From sequence record MN850574.1: a stretch of DNA of 64,000 bases. One strand, written 5' to 3'. Shown piece by piece: positions 29,157 to 54,627 of this stretch. Both the position numbers and the translations under genes were made by a program. Position 1 is the first letter of the stretch, and the number at the start of each line of letters is the position of its first letter. This DNA comes from Escherichia phage kaaroe. Under the pieces are notes generated by a model. It had not been told where the DNA came from, made no database searches, and worked only from the letters and a program-made list of their open reading frames with translations.

Positions 29157-29192
29157 AGTCTAGTAAATTAATCAAAAGAAGGAATAGTGAAT

Positions 29193-30161
29193 ATGTTTAA
29201 ACGCCAAGATTCTTCCAAACTGCAAGCTCAACTGGCCGCACTGAAAGGTGGCAACGGTTTCTCCAAAGAAGATCCGAAAGAGTGGAAGATTAAGACTGAT
29301 GCAGCAGGTAACGGTGAAGCCCTGATTCGCTTCCTGCCGTCTAAGACAGAAGACGGTCTGCCGATTGTGAAACTGGTAAACCATTCCTTCAAAGTTAATG
29401 GCAAATGGTATTGGGAAAACTGCTCAAGCACCCACGGTGATTTTGATTCTTGCCCTGTGTGCAAATATATTAACGAAAAAGACTTGTACAATACCGATAA
29501 AACCGAATGGCAACTGATTAAGCGTAAAGCGTCTTACTACGCAAACATTCTGGTACTGAAAGATCCTCAAGCACCAGAAAATGAAGGTAAGGTATTCAAA
29601 TTCCGCTTCGGTCAGAAAATTTATGATAAGATCGTTGCAATGGTGAACGTGAATACCGATATGGGCGAAGTTCCGGTAGATGTAACTTGTGTGTTCTCTG
29701 GTGCTAACTTCCTCCTGAAAGCTAAGAAGGTTGATAAACACCAGAACTATGATGATTCTCGTTTCATGCAGCAATCACAGCTTCCGAAAATTGAAGACGA
29801 AGCATATCAGAAATATCTGATGGAAAACATGGTTGATCTGAGTGAGATTGTAGCGCCTAGCCAGTTTAAACCGTTCGATGAACTGGAAACCAAATTTAAG
29901 AAAACTATGGGCGTTTCTATGGTAGCTGGTGCTGCGGCTTCCAGTGCTGCGGCAGCGATTAACAGCCAGCTTGACGATTTTGACGCACAGATGAATGCAT
30001 TCGATTCTGGTATGACCGCAGCTAGCACTGTAGTTGGTATTAACGCAGCTAGCACGGCGTTAGATTCTTCCGCTGATGACCTGATGGCATCTCTGGACCT
30101 GGGTGGCGGTACTTCCTCCGCTTCTGATCTGGATGATCTTGACGCTCTGTTAGGGATGTAA
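29193..30161 (+). CDS. 32: single-stranded DNA binding protein gp32
   Basis: ATG after AAGGAA SD; Zn site H..C..CxxC ([14 protein letters not shown]); strong similarity to T4 gp32; acidic C-terminus. Confidence 0.93.
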
Positions 30162-30223: not shown

Positions 30224-30251
30224 TTGACATGTTGGCGAGGTAATGTATAAT
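30224..30251 (+). promoter_or_regulatory. sigma70-type early promoter
   Basis: TTGACA, 16-nt spacer, TATAAT, then CATCGAAACAACGGAGGATAAAAATATG leader. Confidence 0.55.
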
Positions 30252-30281
30252 GAACTCATCGAAACAACGGAGGATAAAAAT

Positions 30282-31526
30282 ATGAAAACTTACTTTGCAA
30301 AAGATGTTTGTTATATTATCAAAAATAAATCCGTCTCAAAAACACCAGAACATTACGAGAATCGCTCAATAAATTATGCATTGTCTCATGGTTTCGTTTA
30401 TTTGGGGTTTATTGGAGAATATTCTGGATGCCAAACCTTGTCAAATTTTGAATGTAAAAGACATGGAACGTTTGCGGTCAGAGTACAAAATCTAAATCAT
30501 GCTAAACATGGTTGCCCAAAATGTGCCATTGAGGATAGGGCAGAAAAAAGAAAATTGAGTATAGAAAAGATTTATAACGACATAAATCGAATCTGTGACG
30601 AGAACGGAACTATAGAATTAACAGAAATTAAAGGTGGGTATAAAACAACAAAAACACGAAATTTATTTTTTAAATGTAAATTGTGTAATGGCATGTTTAA
30701 TACATCACATGATCATTTAAAACGAGGTCAAGCATGTCCAAAATGTCGGTATAAAAAAATTTCTGTGTGTAATACTAGAAACCAACTTGATATTGAACTT
30801 GACATAAAAATAGAATGTAAAAAAAGAAAAACCGTTGAATTTGTAGAATTTGAAAATGGATATTGCAGATACAAGTCAAAAAATTTAATAATGAGATGTT
30901 TGCGTGGACACGGAAATTACACAACAACAGCAAACGACTTTTTTAAGGGACGTGGTTGTCCTACATGCGGAGGAACGAAAAGACTAACAGAAAAACAAGC
31001 ATCTGAACAAATGATAAAAGAGTGTGAAATTAGAGGTTATGATTTTTTGGGATTTTTTAATGGGTATAAAAAGTCGGCAGAACCTAATGCAAAATTAAAA
31101 TGTAAACGCAGTGGGGTAGTTTTTTATACATCACACAACAATTTTATGAAAGGACAAAACTGTAAGTGTTGCTCTGAATTTGGATATAGAACAACGAAAT
31201 CTGGTGTTTTCTATGTACAGAAACTGTTAGAAAATAATATTTTTTGTGGTGTTAAATTTGGTGTAACCAATAGAACAACAAAAGAACGAATTGGAGGTCA
31301 ATCTCGCCTTTCCAAATTCGACCACGAGATCTTTTATGAACTTACTTTACAAGACGGTCAAAAGATCTTAGACTTAGAGAACAAGATCAAGGAAGCGATG
31401 AAAGGTAAAACTTCCTATATCTCAAAAGAAGATATGCCGGATGGCTACACAGAAACAGTAGCGCCGTCAGAATTGAGCACTATCATGTATATCGTAAAAA
31501 CTTTTGAAAAAGAGTTGACAGCGTAA
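30282..31526 (+). CDS. zinc-ribbon repeat protein with C-terminal GIY-YIG/T5orf172-like region (possible homing endonuclease-like element)
   Basis: Four repeats of ~45 aa ending G(C)PxC; C-terminal GVFYVQKL...FCGVKFGVTNRTTKERIG; AT-rich codon usage. Confidence 0.4.
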   Translation: MKTYFAKDVCYIIKNKSVSKTPEHYENRSINYALSHGFVYLGFIGEYSGCQTLSNFECKRHGTFAVRVQNLNHAKHGCPKCAIEDRAEKRKLSIEKIYNDINRICDENGTIELTEIKGGYKTTKTRNLFFKCKLCNGMFNTSHDHLKRGQACPKCRYKKISVCNTRNQLDIELDIKIECKKRKTVEFVEFENGYCRYKSKNLIMRCLRGHGNYTTTANDFFKGRGCPTCGGTKRLTEKQASEQMIKECEIRGYDFLGFFNGYKKSAEPNAKLKCKRSGVVFYTSHNNFMKGQNCKCCSEFGYRTTKSGVFYVQKLLENNIFCGVKFGVTNRTTKERIGGQSRLSKFDHEIFYELTLQDGQKILDLENKIKEAMKGKTSYISKEDMPDGYTETVAPSELSTIMYIVKTFEKELTA

Positions 31527-31918: not shown

Positions 31919-32488
31919 ATGATTCAATGTGTATTTGCGATTGGTGACACTAAAATGTCAGATGAAAACTGGGCTTTTGGTTTTAAAGGCGGTTTACCGT
32001 GGGGTCGTCCAATCAAAAAGGACATGGAAAACTTTAAAATGCGCACTATGGGAGATGTTGATCTTGCGGCGGTAGTAATGGGACGTAATACCTTTGAAAG
32101 TCTGCCTAAAGCACTGGAAGGTCGTCTTAATGTGGTTATTAGTACCGATGCCAGCAAGCCGACACCGAAAGCCAAAAACGGCGACCAGCCTAATGTGTAT
32201 ACTGGAATTGAATTAAAGGATCTGTTAAAAGTCCTGGAGAAAACGCAAGGTTTGGTAAGTGTTATCGGCGGACCTTCCCTGATTGAAAAAGCGGTTGACT
32301 TTGCGGATCGTATTGTGTTAACGTATGTTCAACGTTCAGGAATCAACGATCCATTTGAATATGATGTTGGTATCTCTAAGGAAATGATTCAGGAATTATA
32401 TTTTGACTTTGTAACCAAAGAAGAACATAATTACTTCCTTGATGATTACCTGATCAGCGAACAAATTTTAGAACGTAAGAAGGCGTAA
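31919..32488 (+). CDS. frd: dihydrofolate reductase
   Basis: 189 aa; DHFR pattern (AFGFKGGLPWGRPIKKDMENFK); position between gene 32 and td. Confidence 0.85.
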   Translation: MIQCVFAIGDTKMSDENWAFGFKGGLPWGRPIKKDMENFKMRTMGDVDLAAVVMGRNTFESLPKALEGRLNVVISTDASKPTPKAKNGDQPNVYTGIELKDLLKVLEKTQGLVSVIGGPSLIEKAVDFADRIVLTYVQRSGINDPFEYDVGISKEMIQELYFDFVTKEEHNYFLDDYLISEQILERKKA

Positions 32489-32582: not shown

Positions 32583-32851
32583 TGAAAGTCGGTATTATTC
32601 AATTATGGACGGCTACCAGTGAAAACTACGCAGTAGCCGTAGATTATTACGGTTTACAATATCTCTATGATGAAGCGAGCGCATCATGGCTTCCTGTGCA
32701 AGAAAATAGCGATATATCAAGACCTGCTACTATATTCGACCGTGGCGTTGTCTTTATCGATATTGACGAGACAGTAGCAAAACTGCGTAAGAAAGCAATC
32801 AATAAGAAAAAGGTGATGTGGGATGAAAGAATATTTGAAACTATTGCGTGA
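32582..32851 (+). CDS. hypothetical protein (89 aa)
   Basis: Internal ATG of track ORF 32555-32851; 3' end overlaps td start. Confidence 0.45.
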   Translation: MKVGIIQLWTATSENYAVAVDYYGLQYLYDEASASWLPVQENSDISRPATIFDRGVVFIDIDETVAKLRKKAINKKKVMWDERIFETIA

Positions 32852-34055
32852 TGTTCTTGATAATGGATGGCCTCGTGAAGACCGAACTGGGGTAGGTACG
32901 CTATCTAAATTCGGCGCAGAGATGCGAATTGATTTAAGCAAGGGTTTCCCATTACTGACCACTAAAAAGATGGCTACAGCCTCTGTAATTGGCGAATTGC
33001 TATGGTTTATGGAGGGATCACTTGACCGCCGTCGCTTACAGGAAATTACACGCGGTAAGTTTGACGAAGAAGCCTTCGACATTTGGCGCGGCAACTGTCT
33101 TGATATGAAAGAAAAGAATCCTTTGCGATTCAATGGTTATAATGTCGGCAATATGTATGGTATGGCATGGCGACGCAAACCGATTCATCCACACGGTGAA
33201 ATCAAAATTAAGCGCGTTAAGAGCAAATATGCACATACATTTAAGCACCCGTGGGTAGAAGACTTTACGCCAACCAATGAAACAGAAGACCGTTTATGTG
33301 CTATCTGGCGTGGTATGCGTTATGAAGAGTTTGATTCTGAATATAATCAATTCTTAGTAGCAGACCACTGGAAGACTCAATCTAATTTTGTTAATGATGC
33401 ATATTGCTTGTGGGGATTCCAGGAATGGGTAGATGATGGTTATTTCGGTTATCTGCTTGATAGTGATTATCTGGGCGGGGATATTTTAGCGCCAGATACC
33501 ACGATCTTTGCTAGTATGGACGTAGACACATCGAGCACTAAAGACGATGAAGAATATGTCTATCGACCGAAGATTTGGGAAGACCAGTTACAAAACGTGA
33601 TTGAACAAATTAAAAACAATCCAACGGATCGACGTATCATCATTGACTCATGGAACGTACAAGGAACACATAATGCTGTATTAGGTGTATGTCATCCTTT
33701 CGTGCAATTCTACGTCAATGAAGGTAAACTGTCTTGTATGTGGTTTCAGCGAAGCGTAGACAGCTTTTTAGGCTTGCCCTTTAACGTCGCCAGCTATGCG
33801 CTGTTAACTCACATCATAGCGAAAATGTGTGATCTTGAGGTAGGAGAACTGATTTTCTCTGGTGGAGATACTCACATTTACAAAAACCATTTTGATCAAG
33901 TTATGGAACAGTTAAGCCGTGTTCCGTTTGATAAACCAACGATTGAGTTGCCGGAATTTAAATCTTTAGATGAGGTATTGACAAAGACTCCGAAAGACTT
34001 TAAAATTCACAACTATCAAAGCCATCCAGCAATCACCGCTCAAATGGCAGTATAA
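32823..34055 (+). CDS. td: thymidylate synthase with a ~130-aa internal insertion; no intron
   Basis: 410 aa continuous ORF; ThyA motifs (active-site CHPFVQFYV, RSVDSFLGLPFNVASYALL, SGGDTHIY, C-terminal AV). Confidence 0.88.
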   Translation: MKEYLKLLRDVLDNGWPREDRTGVGTLSKFGAEMRIDLSKGFPLLTTKKMATASVIGELLWFMEGSLDRRRLQEITRGKFDEEAFDIWRGNCLDMKEKNPLRFNGYNVGNMYGMAWRRKPIHPHGEIKIKRVKSKYAHTFKHPWVEDFTPTNETEDRLCAIWRGMRYEEFDSEYNQFLVADHWKTQSNFVNDAYCLWGFQEWVDDGYFGYLLDSDYLGGDILAPDTTIFASMDVDTSSTKDDEEYVYRPKIWEDQLQNVIEQIKNNPTDRRIIIDSWNVQGTHNAVLGVCHPFVQFYVNEGKLSCMWFQRSVDSFLGLPFNVASYALLTHIIAKMCDLEVGELIFSGGDTHIYKNHFDQVMEQLSRVPFDKPTIELPEFKSLDEVLTKTPKDFKIHNYQSHPAITAQMAV

Positions 34056-36959: not shown

Positions 36960-38120
36960 ATGAGCGTATTTAACCGCGAACATGTTGATATTATGAACGA
37001 ACCAATGTTTCTGGGTAGTGGGTTGGGTATCGCTCGCTATGATATTCAGCGTCATCAAGTATTTGAAGAACTGATCGAAAAGCAATTGTCATTTTTCTGG
37101 CGTCCAGAAGAAATTTCACTTGCAACCGACCGCATTCAATATCTTAATATGGGTGACGTTGAAAAGCGTTTCTTTACTGAAAACTTGAAGTATCAGACAT
37201 TACTTGATTCTATTCAAGGTCGCGCACCGTCCGCAGCATTTGGTCCAATTGTATCTGATCCAACTCTCGATACATGGTTGCAAACATGGACATTCAGCGA
37301 AACGATTCATAGCCGAAGCTATACACACATTATGCGTAACTGTTTCATTGATCCGGCTAGTGAGTTCGACCAGATCATCGATAACCCTGCTATCATGAAG
37401 CGAGCGGAATCTATCGGGAAATATTATGATGATGTTCTTTATTGGATTCGTAAGTATGAGAATGCAAAAGAAGATCTCCGCTATTGGGAAGAACGAGACG
37501 ACCAGACAGCATTAGATGATGCAAGAAGATTTTTTGAAGATACAAAACGAGATCTGATGGCTTCGATTTATCTGTGTGCACACTGCGTCAATGCACTGGA
37601 AGCAATTCGTTTTTATGTGTCCTTTGCATGTACTTTCAGCTTTGCCGAACGTGGTTTACTGGAAGGTAACGCGAAGATCATGAAATTTATTGCGCGTGAT
37701 GAACAACTTCACTTAAAAGGCACACAATACATTATTCGTCAATGGCAAACGGGGGTTGATGGTGATGAGTGGAAACAGATTGCGGAAGAACTTGAAGGCG
37801 AAGCAACGAAAATCTTTCTGGATGTTGTCGAGCAAGAAAAAGAATGGGTAGACCACCTATTCGCAATGGGGGCAATTCCTAACCTGTCACCGGAAATTCT
37901 GAAAACCTATGTAGAATACCTGGCAGATTCCCGTATGCGTGCTGCCGGACTGAAAAGCCCGTTTAGTGTTCGTCGTCATCCGTTACCGTGGATGCGTAAA
38001 TGGTTGAACTCTGACGAAGTACAGAATGCAGCGCAGGAAGTAGAGATTATGTATCTGGTATCTCAGGTTAATACCGATTTAACAGATGACGACTACAACC
38101 GATTCGGGAAATATCTATGA
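36960..38120 (+). CDS. nrdB: ribonucleotide reductase small subunit; no intron
   Basis: 386 aa; di-iron ExxH motifs (FSETIHSRSYTH, ARDEQLH); GAGGTG SD. Confidence 0.9.
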   Translation: MSVFNREHVDIMNEPMFLGSGLGIARYDIQRHQVFEELIEKQLSFFWRPEEISLATDRIQYLNMGDVEKRFFTENLKYQTLLDSIQGRAPSAAFGPIVSDPTLDTWLQTWTFSETIHSRSYTHIMRNCFIDPASEFDQIIDNPAIMKRAESIGKYYDDVLYWIRKYENAKEDLRYWEERDDQTALDDARRFFEDTKRDLMASIYLCAHCVNALEAIRFYVSFACTFSFAERGLLEGNAKIMKFIARDEQLHLKGTQYIIRQWQTGVDGDEWKQIAEELEGEATKIFLDVVEQEKEWVDHLFAMGAIPNLSPEILKTYVEYLADSRMRAAGLKSPFSVRRHPLPWMRKWLNSDEVQNAAQEVEIMYLVSQVNTDLTDDDYNRFGKYL

Positions 38121-38593
38121 TATATTTTGTCGATTTAGATTTTACGATCACAGATCCAACACATCGACTAGCAAAGATGCCAACCGAAAATCTTGATAAA
38201 GTCGAGTCATGGATCGAATATAACAAAGCATGTGGGGGAGATTCCCCCATTTACGATGTAATTCGTGTTATTAATGCTCTTTCCGACAACGGGCATTTGA
38301 TTTACATCCTCACCGGACGAAGTTCACATGCTTACATGGAAACAATTGATTGGTTAATTTCTAACGGGGTGTGTTTTGATAAAATCTTTATGAGAGGCCG
38401 TACCGATTCCCGTAAAGATTATCACATCAAATTAGAGGTAATTAAATCCTTTGATAAAGATGAAGTTGTCGGAGTCTTTGAGGATAACCCAGAAGTGATT
38501 AAAGTTTTGCGTGAAAATGGTTATCGTGTCTTTGACGTAGGAAATCACAAAGATAAGACGCGAGCGGATATTGCAAATCACGGTCATGATTAA
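38117..38593 (+). CDS. HAD-superfamily phosphatase-like protein (resembles the Pnk phosphatase domain)
   Basis: 158 aa; N-terminal FVDLDFTIT (DxDxT); similar to the C-terminal half of the pseT product in this window. Confidence 0.6.
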   Translation: MIYFVDLDFTITDPTHRLAKMPTENLDKVESWIEYNKACGGDSPIYDVIRVINALSDNGHLIYILTGRSSHAYMETIDWLISNGVCFDKIFMRGRTDSRKDYHIKLEVIKSFDKDEVVGVFEDNPEVIKVLRENGYRVFDVGNHKDKTRADIANHGHD

Positions 38594-38640: not shown

Positions 38641-38669
38641 TTGACAATCTGATCTTGCCATAGCATAAT
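38641..38669 (+). promoter_or_regulatory. sigma70-type early promoter
   Basis: TTGACA, 17-nt spacer, CATAAT, then CATCGAAACGGAGGAACATATG. Confidence 0.55.
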
Positions 38670-38693
38670 ACGCACATCGAAACGGAGGAACAT

Positions 38694-38912
38694 ATGGAAA
38701 CAGAAGAACAAGTCATTGCATATTTTCATCGTAAAAAGATGAAACTTAGAATTGAAAAGCAGTACATCAATCACTACATTGACCGAGTTCACTTAACAAG
38801 TACACCTTACCTATTCCGGTTGATAAACCCTAGAAAACGGTGGGAGAAGTTGGATAGAAACACAAAAATAATTGATAAGCTCACCCAGTGGTGGAATGAA
38901 TACAACAAGTAA
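38694..38912 (+). CDS. hypothetical basic protein (72 aa)
   Basis: ORF track; GGAGGAA SD. Confidence 0.5.
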   Translation: METEEQVIAYFHRKKMKLRIEKQYINHYIDRVHLTSTPYLFRLINPRKRWEKLDRNTKIIDKLTQWWNEYNK

Positions 38913-38919
38913 AAAGTAG

Positions 38920-38954
38920 TTGACACTGAATAACGGGGGTAGTAAGATACTCCC
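38920..38954 (+). promoter_or_regulatory. PeSL-like early promoter cassette
   Basis: TTGACA; GGGGGTAGTAAGATACTCCC palindrome; conserved leader. Confidence 0.55.
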
Positions 38955-38981
38955 ATCGAAACGAAACAAAGGAGAATCAAA

Positions 38982-39200
38982 ATGAAATTTACTTGCACCG
39001 ACTCTATCAGCAAACACTTTGTAGTAGGCGAAGTATACGAATCTACTACCATTCGCCAGCGTGACCTGATGGGTCGCCTTTACAATCAGCCAGTATTCAT
39101 TATTGGCGAAGAATTGTTCTACATTGAAAACCGTCCGTGGGTTGCTTTCAATAAACGAGGACGCAAGGTAGCAAAATTCGAACTTGTCATTAAAAAGTAG
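38982..39200 (+). CDS. hypothetical protein (72 aa)
   Basis: ORF track; GGAGAATCAAA SD. Confidence 0.5.
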   Translation: MKFTCTDSISKHFVVGEVYESTTIRQRDLMGRLYNQPVFIIGEELFYIENRPWVAFNKRGRKVAKFELVIKK

Positions 39201-39235
39201 TTGACAGCATGAAACGGGGGTAGTAATATACCCCC
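39201..39235 (+). promoter_or_regulatory. PeSL-like early promoter cassette
   Basis: TTGACA; GGGGGTAGTAATATACCCCC palindrome; conserved leader. Confidence 0.55.
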
Positions 39236-39267
39236 ATCGAAACGAAATACACTTTAAGGAGAATCAA

Positions 39268-39417
39268 ATGAACAACTTTGACGCGGTACTGAAAATGGCA
39301 ATCGAAACTTACGCGGAGATCTCCGGCGAGAAAGTAGAGGACATTATCAAAGAATGTCAGAACTTTGAAAGCCAGACAGCCAAGAATGTTCAAATGTTGA
39401 TGTTTGCGGTTGCATAA
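39268..39417 (+). CDS. hypothetical small protein (49 aa)
   Basis: MNNFDAVLKMAIETYAEISGEK...; GGAGAATCAA SD; below track cutoff. Confidence 0.45.
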   Translation: MNNFDAVLKMAIETYAEISGEKVEDIIKECQNFESQTAKNVQMLMFAVA

Positions 39418-39425
39418 AAAAGCAG

Positions 39426-39460
39426 TTGACAGCATATCACGGGAGTAGTAAGATACTCCC
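39426..39460 (+). promoter_or_regulatory. PeSL-like early promoter cassette
   Basis: TTGACA; GGGAGTAGTAAGATACTCCC palindrome; conserved leader. Confidence 0.55.
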
Positions 39461-39487
39461 ATACCAAAACAACTAAGGAGTATCAAG

Positions 39488-39886
39488 ATGATTAAATTTC
39501 AAACTCGCAAAGATGTTCTGGACTTCGTTAAAGTTTTCGGTTACGCTGCATTGCAACATGCAATGGACAAAATGACCATCTCCCCAGATCAGACTATGCT
39601 GATCCGTATGGTTAAAGCAACCGCCTACAAAAACGACATTACCCTCTCAGAAATCAACGACGGTAATACTGTTCGCGAGGTAATTGTTTCTTTCGAATCA
39701 CCGAAAATTGGCGGTTTTCATACCACGATGTTAGGTGAAATCACTGTCACTGTATACGGGCAAGGTGGCGGAGTGTTTACCGTCAAAGAAGCAATGGAAA
39801 ATGGAACGCTGAACAAAGAAAAACTGGAATTTGTCCTGAAAATCATCAAGGAGCGTAACGAAGCTCGCGATATTCTGGAAAGTTAA
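39488..39886 (+). CDS. hypothetical protein (132 aa)
   Basis: ORF track; AGGAGTATCAAG SD. Confidence 0.5.
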   Translation: MIKFQTRKDVLDFVKVFGYAALQHAMDKMTISPDQTMLIRMVKATAYKNDITLSEINDGNTVREVIVSFESPKIGGFHTTMLGEITVTVYGQGGGVFTVKEAMENGTLNKEKLEFVLKIIKERNEARDILES

Positions 39887-39893
39887 TAAGGTG

Positions 39894-39919
39894 GGCGGGA
39901 GAAATCCCGCCTTTGTTGT
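39894..39919 (+). terminator. intrinsic terminator
   Basis: GGCGGGA-GAAA-TCCCGCC followed by TTTGTTGT. Confidence 0.6.
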
Positions 39920-39936
39920 GACGTGAGGAAAGGATA

Positions 39937-40398
39937 ATGATTAATGAGCTAATAGAAAACTATGGATTCGTTAAATATTCATGTTTAGAGTGTAAAGATG
40001 GTGATGTGATTCTGCCGCCTCAGAAGAACCGTTTAAATGTTCTTTACGCTATTGTTGTTGATGATGAACTGGTATACATTGGTCAGACTGTCAATCTCAG
40101 AAAGCGGATCAATTATTACCGGACTAGCATTAACAGACAAACACCAACAGCGGATACTCGCAAGAGTAAGAATATTCATAAGGCGCTAGAGGAAGGTAAG
40201 ACAGTAACATTCTATTACCGACAGTGCTTTGAGTTGTACATCGAGAATCCAACGGGTAAGGATATTATAAGCACTGCCGATATCGAAGAACCTGTTTTGA
40301 TCACCAAATTTAAACCAGAATGGAACACAAATTATGTCAACAAAAGAAAACAACAAAAAAGTTTTAGCATTGTTCAAAAATCTGATGGCACTATGTGA
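39937..40398 (+). CDS. stand-alone GIY-YIG nuclease domain protein
   Basis: 153 aa; VLYAIVVDDELVYIGQTVNLRKRINYYR (GIY...YIG...R); 3' end overlaps rnlA start. Confidence 0.6.
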   Translation: MINELIENYGFVKYSCLECKDGDVILPPQKNRLNVLYAIVVDDELVYIGQTVNLRKRINYYRTSINRQTPTADTRKSKNIHKALEEGKTVTFYYRQCFELYIENPTGKDIISTADIEEPVLITKFKPEWNTNYVNKRKQQKSFSIVQKSDGTM

Positions 40399-41503
40399 CG
40401 GATCTGATACGTTCTATTACAAAGATGAAATTACGGCGATGCAAACCCGTATGCGCATTTTTAGTTATCTGTACTTGAGCAAACCGGAAATGTGGAATAA
40501 ACCAGATGCGTTAGAGTGTCGCGGGATCATGTTTGAAATTGACGATAAAGGTCGTCCGGTCCGCATCGCATCTCGTCCTATGGAGAAGTTTTTTAATTTG
40601 GGTGAGAATGATCGCGCTCGCTTTAAGCCGGAAGATGTGGAAATGGTCATGGACAAAATGGACGGTAGTCTAGTAAGCACATACATTGATAACGGCTATG
40701 TTCAGTTGAAGTCTAAAGCGGCCTTGTACTCAAGCCAGGCAGAGAGAGCAAACGGTCTTCTGTATTCAGAGAAGTATGCGGATCTACGCGCTAAGATTGC
40801 TGATATTGGGTCTGATTATACTTTCAACTTTGAATATACAGCGCCCAGCAACCGAATTGTTGTAGAATATTCTGAACCGTCGCTAACACTTCTGAATGTA
40901 CGCCATAACGTCACAGGAGAGTACGTACCGCATCAAATGCTATTTTCTGACGCAATCCTACGTCCTCATCTGGTAAATGCGTTACAGGTTGATTCAGCGC
41001 GTTTTAGCAATATTCTTGATGAAGTTCGGACCGCAGAAGGTATCGAAGGAATTGTTGCACGCACTAAAGACGGTCAAATGTTCAAAGTGAAGAGTGAATG
41101 GTATATTGGTGTGCATAACATTAAAAACACATCGATGTTTCCTAATAACCTGATCTACTATGTCGTAGAAAGCGAAACCGATGATTTGCGTGCTGCATAT
41201 GAAGGCGAACCGGAAGCACTGGAACGAATCGAGCTATTCGAGGAAGCATTCAGGTCTATTCTTCGCAATGCCTTCACGACAGCAACAGAATTTTATAACG
41301 CACACGCGGGAGAAGACAGAAAGACATATGCATCAAATGCGACTATCGAATCACGTAAACATGGTGATGCACAAGCATATATTTTCATGTGTCTGATGAT
41401 TGCATTTGATGGTCTTGATTATGACCGTATTCTGGATTCAATGAAAACTTACTATCTACGGAATTATAAGAAACTTATTCCGGCTGATAAGATTGATTGG
41501 TAA
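40334..41503 (+). CDS. rnlA: RNA ligase 1
   Basis: 389 aa; adenylation motif KMDGSL; strong similarity to T4 Rnl1 (DALECRGIMFE, VRIASRPMEKFFNL, DRKTYA). Confidence 0.9.
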   Translation: MSTKENNKKVLALFKNLMALCDGSDTFYYKDEITAMQTRMRIFSYLYLSKPEMWNKPDALECRGIMFEIDDKGRPVRIASRPMEKFFNLGENDRARFKPEDVEMVMDKMDGSLVSTYIDNGYVQLKSKAALYSSQAERANGLLYSEKYADLRAKIADIGSDYTFNFEYTAPSNRIVVEYSEPSLTLLNVRHNVTGEYVPHQMLFSDAILRPHLVNALQVDSARFSNILDEVRTAEGIEGIVARTKDGQMFKVKSEWYIGVHNIKNTSMFPNNLIYYVVESETDDLRAAYEGEPEALERIELFEEAFRSILRNAFTTATEFYNAHAGEDRKTYASNATIESRKHGDAQAYIFMCLMIAFDGLDYDRILDSMKTYYLRNYKKLIPADKIDW

Positions 41504-41508
41504 TAATA

Positions 41509-41532
41509 AGCGGGGCTAGTTCCCCGCCTTTT
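41509..41532 (+). terminator. intrinsic terminator
   Basis: GCGGGG / CCCCGC stem followed by CTTTTG. Confidence 0.55.
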
Positions 41533-41547
41533 GTCGTTGGGGGTAAT

Positions 41548-41871
41548 ATGTCAAAGCTGATATACATTGTTATCATCTCTGTGTTGCTAGGGGTAGGTGG
41601 TAATATGTGGTGGGAAAATAAAAAGGAGGTAGATCGACTGAATCAGGAATTTACAGAGTATAAGAAAAAGACAGATGAAAAGATGAAGGTCGTAGACTCA
41701 CTACAAAAGGAGATGTACGGAATAAGAACTAAGTTTGCAGAAGAACAAAACAAAGCAATGAAAGACGCTACACGAGGCTATGTAGTAGCACAAAAACCAA
41801 AGTTGGTAGAGAAACAGCTTAATGATTCATTTAAGGAGTTTACCGAAGAATTAAAGGAGGCTACTAAATGA
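41548..41871 (+). CDS. membrane-anchored coiled-coil protein (107 aa)
   Basis: Internal ATG of track ORF after GGGGG SD; N-terminal TM LIYIVIISVLLGVGG. Confidence 0.5.
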   Translation: MSKLIYIVIISVLLGVGGNMWWENKKEVDRLNQEFTEYKKKTDEKMKVVDSLQKEMYGIRTKFAEEQNKAMKDATRGYVVAQKPKLVEKQLNDSFKEFTEELKEATK

Positions 41872-42320
41872 GCATAGAAATATTGCCTACACAAGAGCAG
41901 ATAAGCAATTTTAATCTGGTTGATTATCTGTGGATAGGTGCAAGCATTATTATCCTGATGGTGTTTTCAATTTTCGTGATACACTGGATGTTTAAGAAAG
42001 CACATAAGAATTTTCAGACCTCCATAATCCATGTCTTCGCTTTGCCTATTGTATTTGCGCTTTCTTCGTGTACAATGGACCATTATTCACAGGAACCGAA
42101 ATTACATCCTCCACTACCAGCACCAATAGAAAAAGTTGACATTGACCTGAAAGTGGATACAATAGACGGTAAACCTAGAGTTTCTATGTCGTGGGAGGAC
42201 TCCCAAAAATTCAGAGTCTGGCTTGCGGATATTAAGAGATATACACTTGAAAGTAAGTTGATCATGTGTTATTATCGAAAAGAACTTAATGAGGAACGGT
42301 GCAAACCGAAGGAGAAATAA
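41868..42320 (+). CDS. membrane protein, possible lipoprotein (alternative start 41988)
   Basis: TM segment, then lipobox-like MFKKAHKNFQTSIIHVFALPIVFALSSC. Confidence 0.45.
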   Translation: MSIEILPTQEQISNFNLVDYLWIGASIIILMVFSIFVIHWMFKKAHKNFQTSIIHVFALPIVFALSSCTMDHYSQEPKLHPPLPAPIEKVDIDLKVDTIDGKPRVSMSWEDSQKFRVWLADIKRYTLESKLIMCYYRKELNEERCKPKEK

Positions 42321-43198
42321 TGCCGAAATGTGAAGTGATTTTAACCGTTGGTTGTTCTGGGTCCGGTAAAACTACATGGGCTATGGAAACGTGTAAACGG
42401 TTTAGTAATTATCGTAATGTGAATCGTGATGATCTTCGTCTTATGTTGTTTGGTGTTGACTCACATTTGAAATACAAGTATACTAAGGAAAAAGAAAAGC
42501 TGGTAGAGTCTATTCAGAGAATGATTGCTCGTGAGACTCTATCACGCGGATTGAGTATCATTATCTCCGATACCAACCTGAAAGAAAAACATCGTGTATT
42601 CTACAAAGAACTTGCAAAAGAATTTAACGCGGTGTATACTGAACAAGTGTTCAATGAATCATTTGAGACACTAAAGAAACGTAATTTCTATCGCGGCGAG
42701 AAAGCAATTCCACTTTCTCATTTGCGCAACCAATTTTATCTGATGCAGGAATATATGGGTCAAGAAGTATACAAACCGAATACTATGCTGCCAAAGGCAG
42801 TGATCTTTGATATTGATGGAACATTAGCGGATAAGGGCGGTCGTCATCCGTTTGACTGGACAAAGGTCAAAGAAGATAAACCACGTCCGCAAGTGATCGA
42901 AATGCTTAAACTGTATCGTGATAATGGCTATCGTATCATTACATGCTCAGGTCGTGAGGATGTTTGCGAAGAAGATACTCTGCAATGGTTGCGTGAACAG
43001 GGTATTGAACCTAGTGATCACTTTCAACGTGAAACTAATGATCGTCGTCCTGATCATGAAGTAAAGAAAGAGATTTTCTTCTCTGAAATTGCACCGCGAT
43101 ATCATGTTGTTTTGGCAGTAGATGACCGTGATCAAGTGGTTGACATGTATCGCTCAATTGGTGTAGAATGTTTTCAGGTTAACTACGGAGACTTTTAA
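42320..43198 (+). CDS. pseT: polynucleotide 5'-kinase/3'-phosphatase
   Basis: ATG after AAGGAGA SD; Walker A GCSGSGKTT; phosphatase DIDGTLA; T4 Pnk-like C-terminus (IGVECFQVNYGDF). Confidence 0.9.
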   Translation: MPKCEVILTVGCSGSGKTTWAMETCKRFSNYRNVNRDDLRLMLFGVDSHLKYKYTKEKEKLVESIQRMIARETLSRGLSIIISDTNLKEKHRVFYKELAKEFNAVYTEQVFNESFETLKKRNFYRGEKAIPLSHLRNQFYLMQEYMGQEVYKPNTMLPKAVIFDIDGTLADKGGRHPFDWTKVKEDKPRPQVIEMLKLYRDNGYRIITCSGREDVCEEDTLQWLREQGIEPSDHFQRETNDRRPDHEVKKEIFFSEIAPRYHVVLAVDDRDQVVDMYRSIGVECFQVNYGDF

Positions 43199-52646: not shown

Positions 52647-52888
52647 AAAGAAAATTAATTAAACGCAATAAGGAATTTCTTAATAACTGCATTAAGGCCG
52701 CTAATGGTTGGCCTTTGTGCCTCTTCCTTTATGATTGGTATTCTAAACAATCAGTTGAGGAAACACGACACTATAAGAAGATCAGAAAAGAATCATATAC
52801 AAAACAAGGCCGCATTAACGGACTTTACTTAATGTGGCACGGCAAAGAACCTTCTAAAATCTGCGTTGGATTAAAGGGGCGTATATGA
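52643..52888 (+). CDS. hypothetical basic protein (81 aa)
   Basis: ORF track; start overlaps previous stop. Confidence 0.5.
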   Translation: MKRKLIKRNKEFLNNCIKAANGWPLCLFLYDWYSKQSVEETRHYKKIRKESYTKQGRINGLYLMWHGKEPSKICVGLKGRI

Positions 52889-53601
52889 AACAAAAATTAA
52901 TATTCTGTAACTTTGACGGATCGGGGATAATGGGGCTAGAATGGGCTAAAGCAGGTCATAAGGTGATCTGCTTTAATGCTGACGATGGCGACCACGGCAC
53001 ATACAAAAAGTATAATACCAGATTTGAACACCCAAACATTACCTATGTAAACACATGGATTGATTTGAACTGGCTAGAAAGAGCAATGGACCTTGAATGG
53101 GGGAAACCGGATATTATCTTTGCATTCCCACCGTGCACCAATTTAGCTGTTAGTGGCGCTGCACACTTTGAACGAAAGAAACGAGAACAAGGACCATTGA
53201 TTCAAGTTCATGATGTAAGGGCAGCTAAAATAACCGCTTATTTGGGTGAATGGCTAGGAGTTCCCTACATGATAGAGAATCCTGTAAGCGTTATCTCTAG
53301 CATGTGGCGTAAGCCTGATTACATGTTCCACCCGTGGGAATATGGCGGTTATTTGCCGGAAGATGATAAACATCCTACTTTTCCTGAGTATATCGCCGCC
53401 CGTGATATGTACCCGAAAAAGACTTGCTTATGGACCGGACAAGGCTTTATAATGCCAGAAAAGAAACCGTTGCAGATTAATAAAGGGTACAGTAAACAGC
53501 ATTCTAAGCTAGGCGGGAAAGGAACGAAAACAAAGACTATCAGGTCACTTACCCCGCGAGGATTCGCAAAGGCAGTATTTGAAGCAAATAAGGATCTATG
53601 A
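52885..53601 (+). CDS. short DNA C5-cytosine methyltransferase-like protein (no obvious target-recognition domain)
   Basis: 238 aa; motif I-like FDGSGIMG, motif IV-like FPPCTNLAVSGA, motif VI-like IENPVSV. Confidence 0.55.
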   Translation: MKQKLIFCNFDGSGIMGLEWAKAGHKVICFNADDGDHGTYKKYNTRFEHPNITYVNTWIDLNWLERAMDLEWGKPDIIFAFPPCTNLAVSGAAHFERKKREQGPLIQVHDVRAAKITAYLGEWLGVPYMIENPVSVISSMWRKPDYMFHPWEYGGYLPEDDKHPTFPEYIAARDMYPKKTCLWTGQGFIMPEKKPLQINKGYSKQHSKLGGKGTKTKTIRSLTPRGFAKAVFEANKDL

Positions 53602-53936: not shown

Positions 53937-54112
53937 TAACACCACAACTACACGGTAAAGAGATTTGCGATCTTACTTGGGAAGAGTTGGTCATGTATCG
54001 CGACACCTACAAATGGTTTGAATCCATGAAAGAATTTGTAGCAGCAGTACGAGAAGAAATGAGCATTCGCCAGTATGCGGACGCATATATTGAAAAGGTA
54101 AGCACACTATGA
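53933..54112 (+). CDS. hypothetical protein (59 aa)
   Basis: MITPQLHGKEICDLTWEELVMYRDTYKWF...; overlaps neighbours on both sides; below track cutoff. Confidence 0.45.
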   Translation: MITPQLHGKEICDLTWEELVMYRDTYKWFESMKEFVAAVREEMSIRQYADAYIEKVSTL

Positions 54113-54627
54113 ACCGTTTAACGCCTAAACGCCGTTACTATACCAATACTAAAAACTTTGTCATCTCTGTTTATGAGGCGTGGTTAGAAGATGGCTTTAT
54201 CAACATGAACCCAGATTATCAGCGTCCTTTGGTATGGGACACCGAAAACAAACGTATGTTTATCGAAAACCTGATTAATGATTTTCCGGTTGGTGCTATC
54301 GCAATGGCTAAGATTGATGATGGCTCTCGCTATGAGATCGAAATCGTGGACGGTAAACAGCGTTTAAACGCAATATTCTCCTTCATGAAGGATGAGTTTA
54401 GCATTGCTGGTAATGATGATTCTATGTTGTATTACAGTGATTTTACGCCAGCAGAAAAGCGACGTTTCCGAAATCTCGGACTACCCGCGATCATGATGGA
54501 AGAGAGCACACGAGAAGACCGATTAGAGTATTTCTACAAAACAAACTTTTTCGGTGTGCCTCAATCGGAAGAACATCGCCAGCATGTGATTGCCCTATTG
54601 CAAGATGAGCAATTAAAAAATAACTAA
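54109..54627 (+). CDS. DUF262-like (ParB/Srx-fold, GmrSD/DndB N-terminal-type) domain protein
   Basis: 172 aa; PDYQRPLVWD...FPVGAIAMA...YEIEIVDGKQRLNAIFSF (DGQQR-type motif). Confidence 0.55.
   Translation: MNRLTPKRRYYTNTKNFVISVYEAWLEDGFINMNPDYQRPLVWDTENKRMFIENLINDFPVGAIAMAKIDDGSRYEIEIVDGKQRLNAIFSFMKDEFSIAGNDDSMLYYSDFTPAEKRRFRNLGLPAIMMEESTREDRLEYFYKTNFFGVPQSEEHRQHVIALLQDEQLKNN

Follow-up and report, generated by a model that had tools for sequence, protein, structure and literature searches.

The 153-amino-acid open reading frame (ORF) that overlaps the 5' end of the RNA ligase 1 gene (rnlA) of Escherichia phage kaaroe is, with high confidence, denA, the Krischvirus (RB49-type) ortholog of T4 endonuclease II (EndoII). 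The ORF was examined within a 64,000-nucleotide stretch of sequence record MN850574.1, here called the window, which belongs to a Krischvirus (RB49-like Straboviridae) genome and shares approximately 96% identity with vB_EcoM_Skers along its length. The encoded protein consists of one GIY-YIG nuclease domain that corresponds to T4 EndoII from end to end, retains all the residues tested among those with a role in DNA binding or catalysis in the T4 enzyme, and evolves under strong purifying selection. An original prediction made from the sequence alone correctly described the nuclease core, the lack of a recognizable DNA-binding extension and the overlap with rnlA; its interpretation of the gene, as a homing endonuclease that is decaying or minimal, or else a nuclease that depends on a partner for targeting, is not borne out by the results reported here.

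Results

Identification of the ORF as denA

Both the ORF list and the sequence itself yield a 153-amino-acid frame on the + strand, from the ATG at 39937 to a TGA that ends at 40398. The signals around this frame and the features inside it are collected in Table 1. A ribosome-binding site is annotated in the Ec_Makalu_003 record at the position equivalent to the denA Shine-Dalgarno sequence, and the hairpin farther upstream is labelled 'terminator' in this and other records.

Table 1. Coordinates of denA, rnlA and associated features in the window
Feature	Coordinates	Strand	Remarks
Terminator-like GC hairpin (39893-39912) followed by a T tract	39893..39919	+	Between the stop of the 132-amino-acid ORF and denA
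Shine-Dalgarno of denA, purine-rich, GAGGAAAGGA	39925..39934	+	Read from the sequence
denA CDS, endonuclease II (EndoII)	39937..40398	+	Single GIY-YIG domain and 17-residue basic tail
K13 codon, equivalent to K12 of T4 EndoII	39973..39975	+	FVKY and FIKY aligned
GIY-YIG core, residues 35-57: VLY ('GIY' strand, Y37), YIG (Y47-I48-G49), R57	40039..40107	+	
K76 codon, middle region	40162..40164	+	Invariant in A1, at least 90% in A2
E117-E118 codons	40285..40290	+	E118 is the Mg2+-coordinating catalytic glutamate in T4 EndoII
Weak ribosome-binding site (GGA) of rnlA, inside the denA W129-N130 codons	40322..40324	+	Annotated in Ec_Makalu_003
N130 codon, PEWN motif	40324..40326	+	Conserved C-terminal Asn of GIY-YIG domains
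rnlA, RNA ligase 1 / tail-fibre attachment catalyst, 389 amino acids	40334..41503	+	T4_Rnl1_C 9.8e-33, RNA_lig_T4_1 2.1e-20, phrog_562
Lineage-specific DenA C-terminal tail, residues 137-153, RKQQKSFSIVQKSDGTM plus stop	40345..40398	+	Absent from the 136-amino-acid T4-type DenA
A6 homopolymer within the denA/rnlA overlap	40355..40360	+	A7 in JSE, both frames shifted

In a phmmer search with the single sequence, the window protein matched the T4 Endonuclease II structure (Protein Data Bank (PDB) identifier 2WSH) with E = 2.6e-38 over residues 3-134, at about 50% identity. A similar level of identity, approximately 50%, is found to the T4-type DenA proteins, and the similarity to T4 EndoII extends over the whole 136-residue T4 protein. 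A full-length match was also obtained to phrog_1111, annotated 'endonuclease' (2.1e-52). With the 2WSH match at the 1e-38 level and the conserved synteny described below, the homology to T4 EndoII can be taken as sound.

The core that had been picked out in the original prediction (VLYAIVV...YIGQTVNLRKR) is located at residues 35-57. Searched alone, the window protein scored 22.5 bits against the Pfam GIY-YIG model, 0.1 bit short of the gathering score of 22.6; the model was matched by 22 of the 22 DenA family members tested, and a profile built from 22 homologs retrieved 2WSH from the PDB at 4.6e-69, with UvrC GIY-YIG domains coming next as weak matches. The GIY-YIG models were the only Pfam matches of the 153-amino-acid protein and no second domain was found; the only sequence beyond the T4 length is the 17-residue basic tail. 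A single-sequence AlphaFold model (mean pLDDT 47.9, pTM 0.49) was too poor for a fold search; it places elements in a beta-beta-alpha-alpha-beta order at residues 34-97, which is compatible with GIY-YIG and carries no weight at this pLDDT.

This gene is already known. The RB49 GenBank record AY343333.1 (AAQ15449.1) contains a 153-amino-acid denA and a 389-amino-acid rnlA with the same coordinates and the same overlap, and gives the denA product as a 'site-specific endonuclease II initiating degradation of cytosine-containing DNA'.

Conserved residues and selection

Window DenA and T4 EndoII are numbered identically from residue 37 on. Two alignments were used, a larger one of 22 DenA homologs (A2) and a smaller one of five sequences (A1). 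Across the 22 homologs, V35, Y37, Y47, I48, G49, K56 and R57 are invariant, as are E117 and E118, whereas K76 and N130 are conserved in at least 90% of A2 and are invariant in A1. Mutational work on the T4 enzyme has assigned functions to several of these positions: K12, in the N-terminal region, is required for stable DNA binding; K76, in the middle region, together with G49 and R57, is required for recognition and binding; and E118 coordinates Mg2+, with catalysis abolished by the E118A substitution (PMC2764454). The 2WSH protein is itself the E118A mutant, as is apparent from its alignment with window DenA. All five functional residues (K12, G49, R57, K76 and E118) are kept in window DenA, which shares with T4 EndoII the GIY-YIG core, N130 and the N-terminal and middle regions that are specific to EndoII.

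Comparison of eight Krischvirus denA alleles identified 32 polymorphic sites, 27 of which fall at codon position 3, and the mean dN/dS (Nei-Gojobori) is about 0.04. When the same sites are read in either of the other frames, almost all of them become non-synonymous. The low dN/dS and the excess of changes at codon position 3 indicate strong purifying selection, a pattern characteristic of an expressed, selected protein and not of a decaying gene. A pseudogene is contradicted by the full length of the ORF, the intact catalytic residues and the dN/dS value.

Phyletic distribution and gene order

The denA region was found in 58 of 58 Krischvirus records, at 97-100% nucleotide identity, and the 601 nt around the gene are 100% identical to several records, one of which is an RB49 record. 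More broadly, tblastn detected DenA homologs in 1152 of 50,697 phage records, most of them annotated denA or endonuclease II; Rnl1 homologs are present in 1964. These numbers agree with the classification of denA as a 'Quasicore' auxiliary-metabolism gene that is present in all T4 relatives except for the phages of Acinetobacter and the marine cyanophages (PMC2993671). All 45 Straboviridae loci examined, drawn from GenBank and IMG/VR, have rnlA downstream of denA and in the same orientation. The question of presence or absence upstream of rnlA in relatives, raised in the original prediction, is thereby answered, and the pattern is not the sporadic one that a mobile gene would give.

The gene order in the window, frd-td-nrdA-nrdB-(five small ORFs)-denA-rnlA-spanins-pseT-cd, parallels that of T4-type phages, with denA placed as in T4 between nrdB and rnlA in a nucleotide-metabolism cluster. 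The five extra small ORFs between nrdB and denA set the window apart from T4. One of them (38117-38593, +), directly after nrdB, encodes a stand-alone HAD phosphatase resembling the phosphatase domain of PNKP (2.9e-13; phrog_415 'polynucleotide kinase') and is additional to the full-length pseT at 42299-43198. Near-consensus sigma-70-like promoters (TTGACA, 17 nt, TAnnAT) occur at 38641, 38920, 39201 and 39426 on the + strand (region 38641-39454), each preceding one small ORF upstream of denA in an arrangement that resembles early-promoter cassettes, in a scanned region where the promoter count does not exceed the shuffled expectation (15 versus 12.8).

Some further observations concern the flanks. 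Between rnlA and pseT lie two Rz-like spanin genes (41497-42320, +; phrog_739 and phrog_812), labelled pseT.3 and pseT.2 in the older RB49 and JSE records, and alc, which in T4-type phages is located between rnlA and the spanin genes, is absent from the window. Farther upstream, the thymidylate synthase gene (32823-34055, +) encodes 410 amino acids, and the 266-position Pfam model is covered end to end; the difference in length implies an in-frame insertion of some 125-145 residues, around residues 120-250. Skers and Brandy share this insertion, their genes being about 1.23 kb long, and no intein-like ends were obvious by eye.

The small ORFs upstream of denA bear on one of the two readings put forward in the original prediction, namely, that the protein is a catalytic-only subunit directed to DNA by a separate partner. 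The small size of the protein, its lack of a DNA-binding domain and the presence of several uncharacterized small ORFs just upstream (38694-39886) would be in keeping with such an arrangement. However, the T4-type phages, in which nrdB is directly adjacent to denA, have no such upstream ORFs, the binding determinants K12 and K76 reside within the protein itself and are both conserved in window DenA, and T4 EndoII binds and nicks DNA unaided, as a homotetramer (PMC2764454). We therefore regard a targeting partner as highly unlikely. One specific candidate for a partner or immunity protein, the 132-amino-acid ORF at 39488-39886, was rejected: its homologs are found mainly in enterobacterial jumbo phages and do not co-occur with denA.

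Comparison with other GIY-YIG nucleases

Homing GIY-YIG enzymes are monomers built of two domains, with the DNA-binding module at the C-terminus, and are sporadically distributed; Seg genes are abundant in T4-type genomes. Against this background, a GIY-YIG core that lacks a DNA-binding domain could be read as a free-standing, Seg-like homing endonuclease, either minimal or decaying after loss of its C-terminal domain, particularly as the window contains candidate homing endonuclease genes elsewhere. Window DenA shares with the Seg proteins and I-TevI the superfamily fold and the one-metal catalytic motif, and the cleavage sites of T4 EndoII, which are long, asymmetric and degenerate, are somewhat reminiscent of those of I-TevI (PMC2764454). 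DenA is a single-domain protein from which, in comparison with T4 EndoII, nothing is missing; it is universal and syntenic in its clade (58/58 Krischvirus records and 45/45 Straboviridae loci), whereas homing genes are sporadic; and a dN/dS of about 0.04 speaks against decay. The suggested comparison with Seg-type endonucleases revealed no detectable pairwise similarity: I-TevI and other homing enzymes in the PDB were not matched at E up to 10 with the 22-homolog profile, the I-TevI chains were not matched at E up to 1 with the single DenA sequence, and BLASTP found nothing between DenA and the window's candidate homing endonuclease at 30243-31526. Petrov et al. counted zero seg-like GIY-YIG homing genes in RB49 and tallied denA separately (PMC2993671). 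Given how the gene is distributed, its synteny, the selection acting on it and the absence of similarity to I-TevI or Seg, we reject the homing endonuclease reading as extremely improbable.

The candidate just mentioned is of some interest in its own right. This 427-amino-acid ORF (30243-31526, +), located between gene 32 (29187-30161) and frd (31919-32488), has zinc-finger repeats of the CapR/treble-clef type and a match to phrog_681 'endonuclease' (6.7e-73). For most of this stretch (approximately 30285-31298), blastn gave no match in Skers, whose equivalent slot is annotated 'GIY-YIG nuclease family protein'. The ORF probably represents a homing endonuclease gene that is free-standing and variable.

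The restriction enzymes Cfr42I and Eco29kI provide an architectural parallel, being single-domain GIY-YIG proteins that have no distinct domain for DNA binding; Cfr42I, moreover, forms a tetramer, as EndoII does (PMC2764454). They differ from DenA in that they recognize short symmetric sites, have methyltransferase partners and occur in bacteria. Similarity to DenA outside the motifs is negligible, and neither was matched in the PDB with the 22-homolog profile.

The denA/rnlA overlap and the start of rnlA

If translation of rnlA starts at the ATG at 40334, its first 65 nt (40334-40398) overlap denA in a different frame, as the original prediction had noted. This start is the best-supported one by sequence comparison. 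In every relative examined (45 loci), the motif L(F/Y)xxLMxLC begins 1-10 residues after the start of Rnl1; in T4 Rnl1, it lies in the N-terminus MQELFNNLMELC. The window version of the motif, LFKNLMALC, is encoded upstream of the ATG at 40385, and the ATG at 40334 is preferred because it is the only in-frame ATG upstream of the motif. The N-terminal stretch MSTKENNKKVLALFK belongs to the rnlA product read from this ATG. An equivalent start is used in the RB49 and Ec_Makalu_003 records; a start at TTG 40370 may also be considered.

The Skers, Brandy and KFS-EC records begin rnlA at the later ATG, 40385, which reduces the overlap to 14 nt and cuts off the motif. We reject this start, which removes a conserved N-terminal motif of Rnl1. 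The late start in MW748999, MZ504876 and MH560358 is likely to be a systematic start-codon mis-call; rnlA in Skers, Brandy and KFS-EC would then be annotated 51 nt too late, at the cost of a 17-residue N-terminus that includes L(F/Y)xxLMxLC.

Across the 45 Straboviridae loci, the junction between the two genes varies. Overlaps of 1-4 nt, of the ATGA type, are the commonest; the overlap is 38 nt in Aeromonas phage Aeh1 and one IMG/VR lineage and 65 nt in Krischvirus. The T4-type phages, in contrast, have a gap of 52 nt, and a few lineages carry inserts of 200-670 nt. Aeh1 shows the same arrangement as the window, with the sequence GAATGGAA...ATTATG and the rnlA ATG just past the denA PEWN codons.

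As a further difference from T4, window DenA carries the 17-residue C-terminal tail, a low-complexity, basic sequence that arises from read-through of the rnlA 5' end. G151D, among the few amino acid polymorphisms of denA, is located in this tail. The JSE record (EU863408.1) has one extra A in the homopolymer, by which DenA becomes 143 amino acids long and the start of rnlA moves to an ATG within the W129 codon; the extra A is either a sequencing error in the homopolymer or a frameshift that the phage tolerates. Apart from the later rnlA start called in three records and the additional A in JSE, there is nothing of substance to distinguish the Krischvirus denA genes from the one in the window.

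Discussion

Predicted role in host DNA degradation

Our literature search found no biochemical or genetic work on the DenA of Krischvirus (RB49), and the function outlined here is modelled on the T4 enzyme. Purified T4 EndoII forms dimers and tetramers, and the tetramer binds two DNA duplexes; on its own, the enzyme binds and nicks DNA by means of its N-terminal and middle regions, cutting one strand, and occasionally both, at asymmetric and weakly defined sites with strong conservation of just one C:G pair (PMC2764454). This nicking is the first step of host DNA degradation, which leads to host shut-off and nucleotide salvage (PMC2764454), and T4's own DNA is protected by hydroxymethylcytosine (hmC) (PMC2764454; PMC1564403).

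By analogy, window DenA would form a homotetramer that uses its own N-terminal and middle regions to bind two DNA duplexes; its Mg2+-dependent nicks in cytosine-containing DNA would affect single strands, with occasional pairs, and fall at loosely defined sites. Judging from the conserved sequence and from the behaviour of the T4 protein, it should need neither a DNA-binding extension nor a partner. DenA may take part in the degradation of host DNA, as in T4, and a role in breakdown and salvage of the host chromosome fits the place of the gene in the nucleotide-metabolism cluster frd-td-nrdA-nrdB-denA. Cotranscription of denA and rnlA is expected, and the position of the rnlA start codon inside the 3' end of denA is compatible with translational coupling.

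Cytosine DNA and discrimination between self and host

The phages of the window's type differ from T4 in the chemistry of their DNA. RB49 DNA contains unmodified cytosine, as demonstrated by its cleavage with HpaII and NheI (PMC4041780), and the Krischvirus genomes lack hmC synthase (gene 42), denB, alc and ndd while retaining denA and dCTPase (PMC12115623, Table 4). Because RB49 cytosines are unmodified and the hmC synthase is absent, the rule by which T4 tells its own DNA from that of the host, hmC versus C, is inapplicable. In addition, RB49 transduces plasmids at high frequency, which implies that host-type DNA is not thoroughly destroyed and hence that the role of DenA in vivo may be narrower than, or different from, its role in T4.

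These considerations lead to a reading in which the protein is a true DenA ortholog with a shifted role, such as limited nicking that feeds recombination-dependent replication or action against competing or foreign DNA, combined with self-protection by means other than hmC, for instance, through a phage methyltransferase, through an inhibitor, or by timing or compartmentation. The strong selection that has maintained denA although hmC synthase, denB, alc and ndd are gone would fit such a shift, as would the unmodified cytosines and the incomplete destruction of host DNA suggested by efficient transduction; the puzzle of self versus host has already been raised in the literature, with a phage cytosine methyltransferase suggested as its solution (PMC8056088). 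The window does encode a possible factor of this kind, a 238-amino-acid DNA methyltransferase (52885-53601, +; phrog_757, 2.1e-90) whose FPPC and ENPV motifs resemble motifs IV and VI of C5-cytosine methyltransferases and which has no Pfam or PDB match; as a candidate self-protection factor, it is only a lead. Yet HpaII cuts RB49 DNA, which argues against blanket cytosine methylation, the DNA-contacting and catalytic residues of DenA are identical to those of T4 and give no hint of a changed specificity, and T4 EndoII cuts rarely, such that modest self-nicking might be tolerated or repaired. We consider a shifted role doubtful.

A separate observation is a 172-amino-acid protein (54109-54627, +) that consists of the GmrSD_N (DUF262) domain alone (5.2e-20), without the nuclease half. 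The presence of such a protein is odd in a phage without modified cytosines.

Returning to the identification of the ORF as denA, its significance beyond correct annotation is small, given that this is a textbook denA. The self versus host question, for its part, is a property of the whole Krischvirus genus and does not newly arise from this window. It is possible, and we suggest this tentatively, that an active Krischvirus EndoII either discriminates self from host by a mechanism that does not involve hmC, with the C5-like methyltransferase, a protein inhibitor and timing as candidate means of protection, or serves a role other than host DNA demolition, for which recombination priming and attack on competitor DNA are the candidates.
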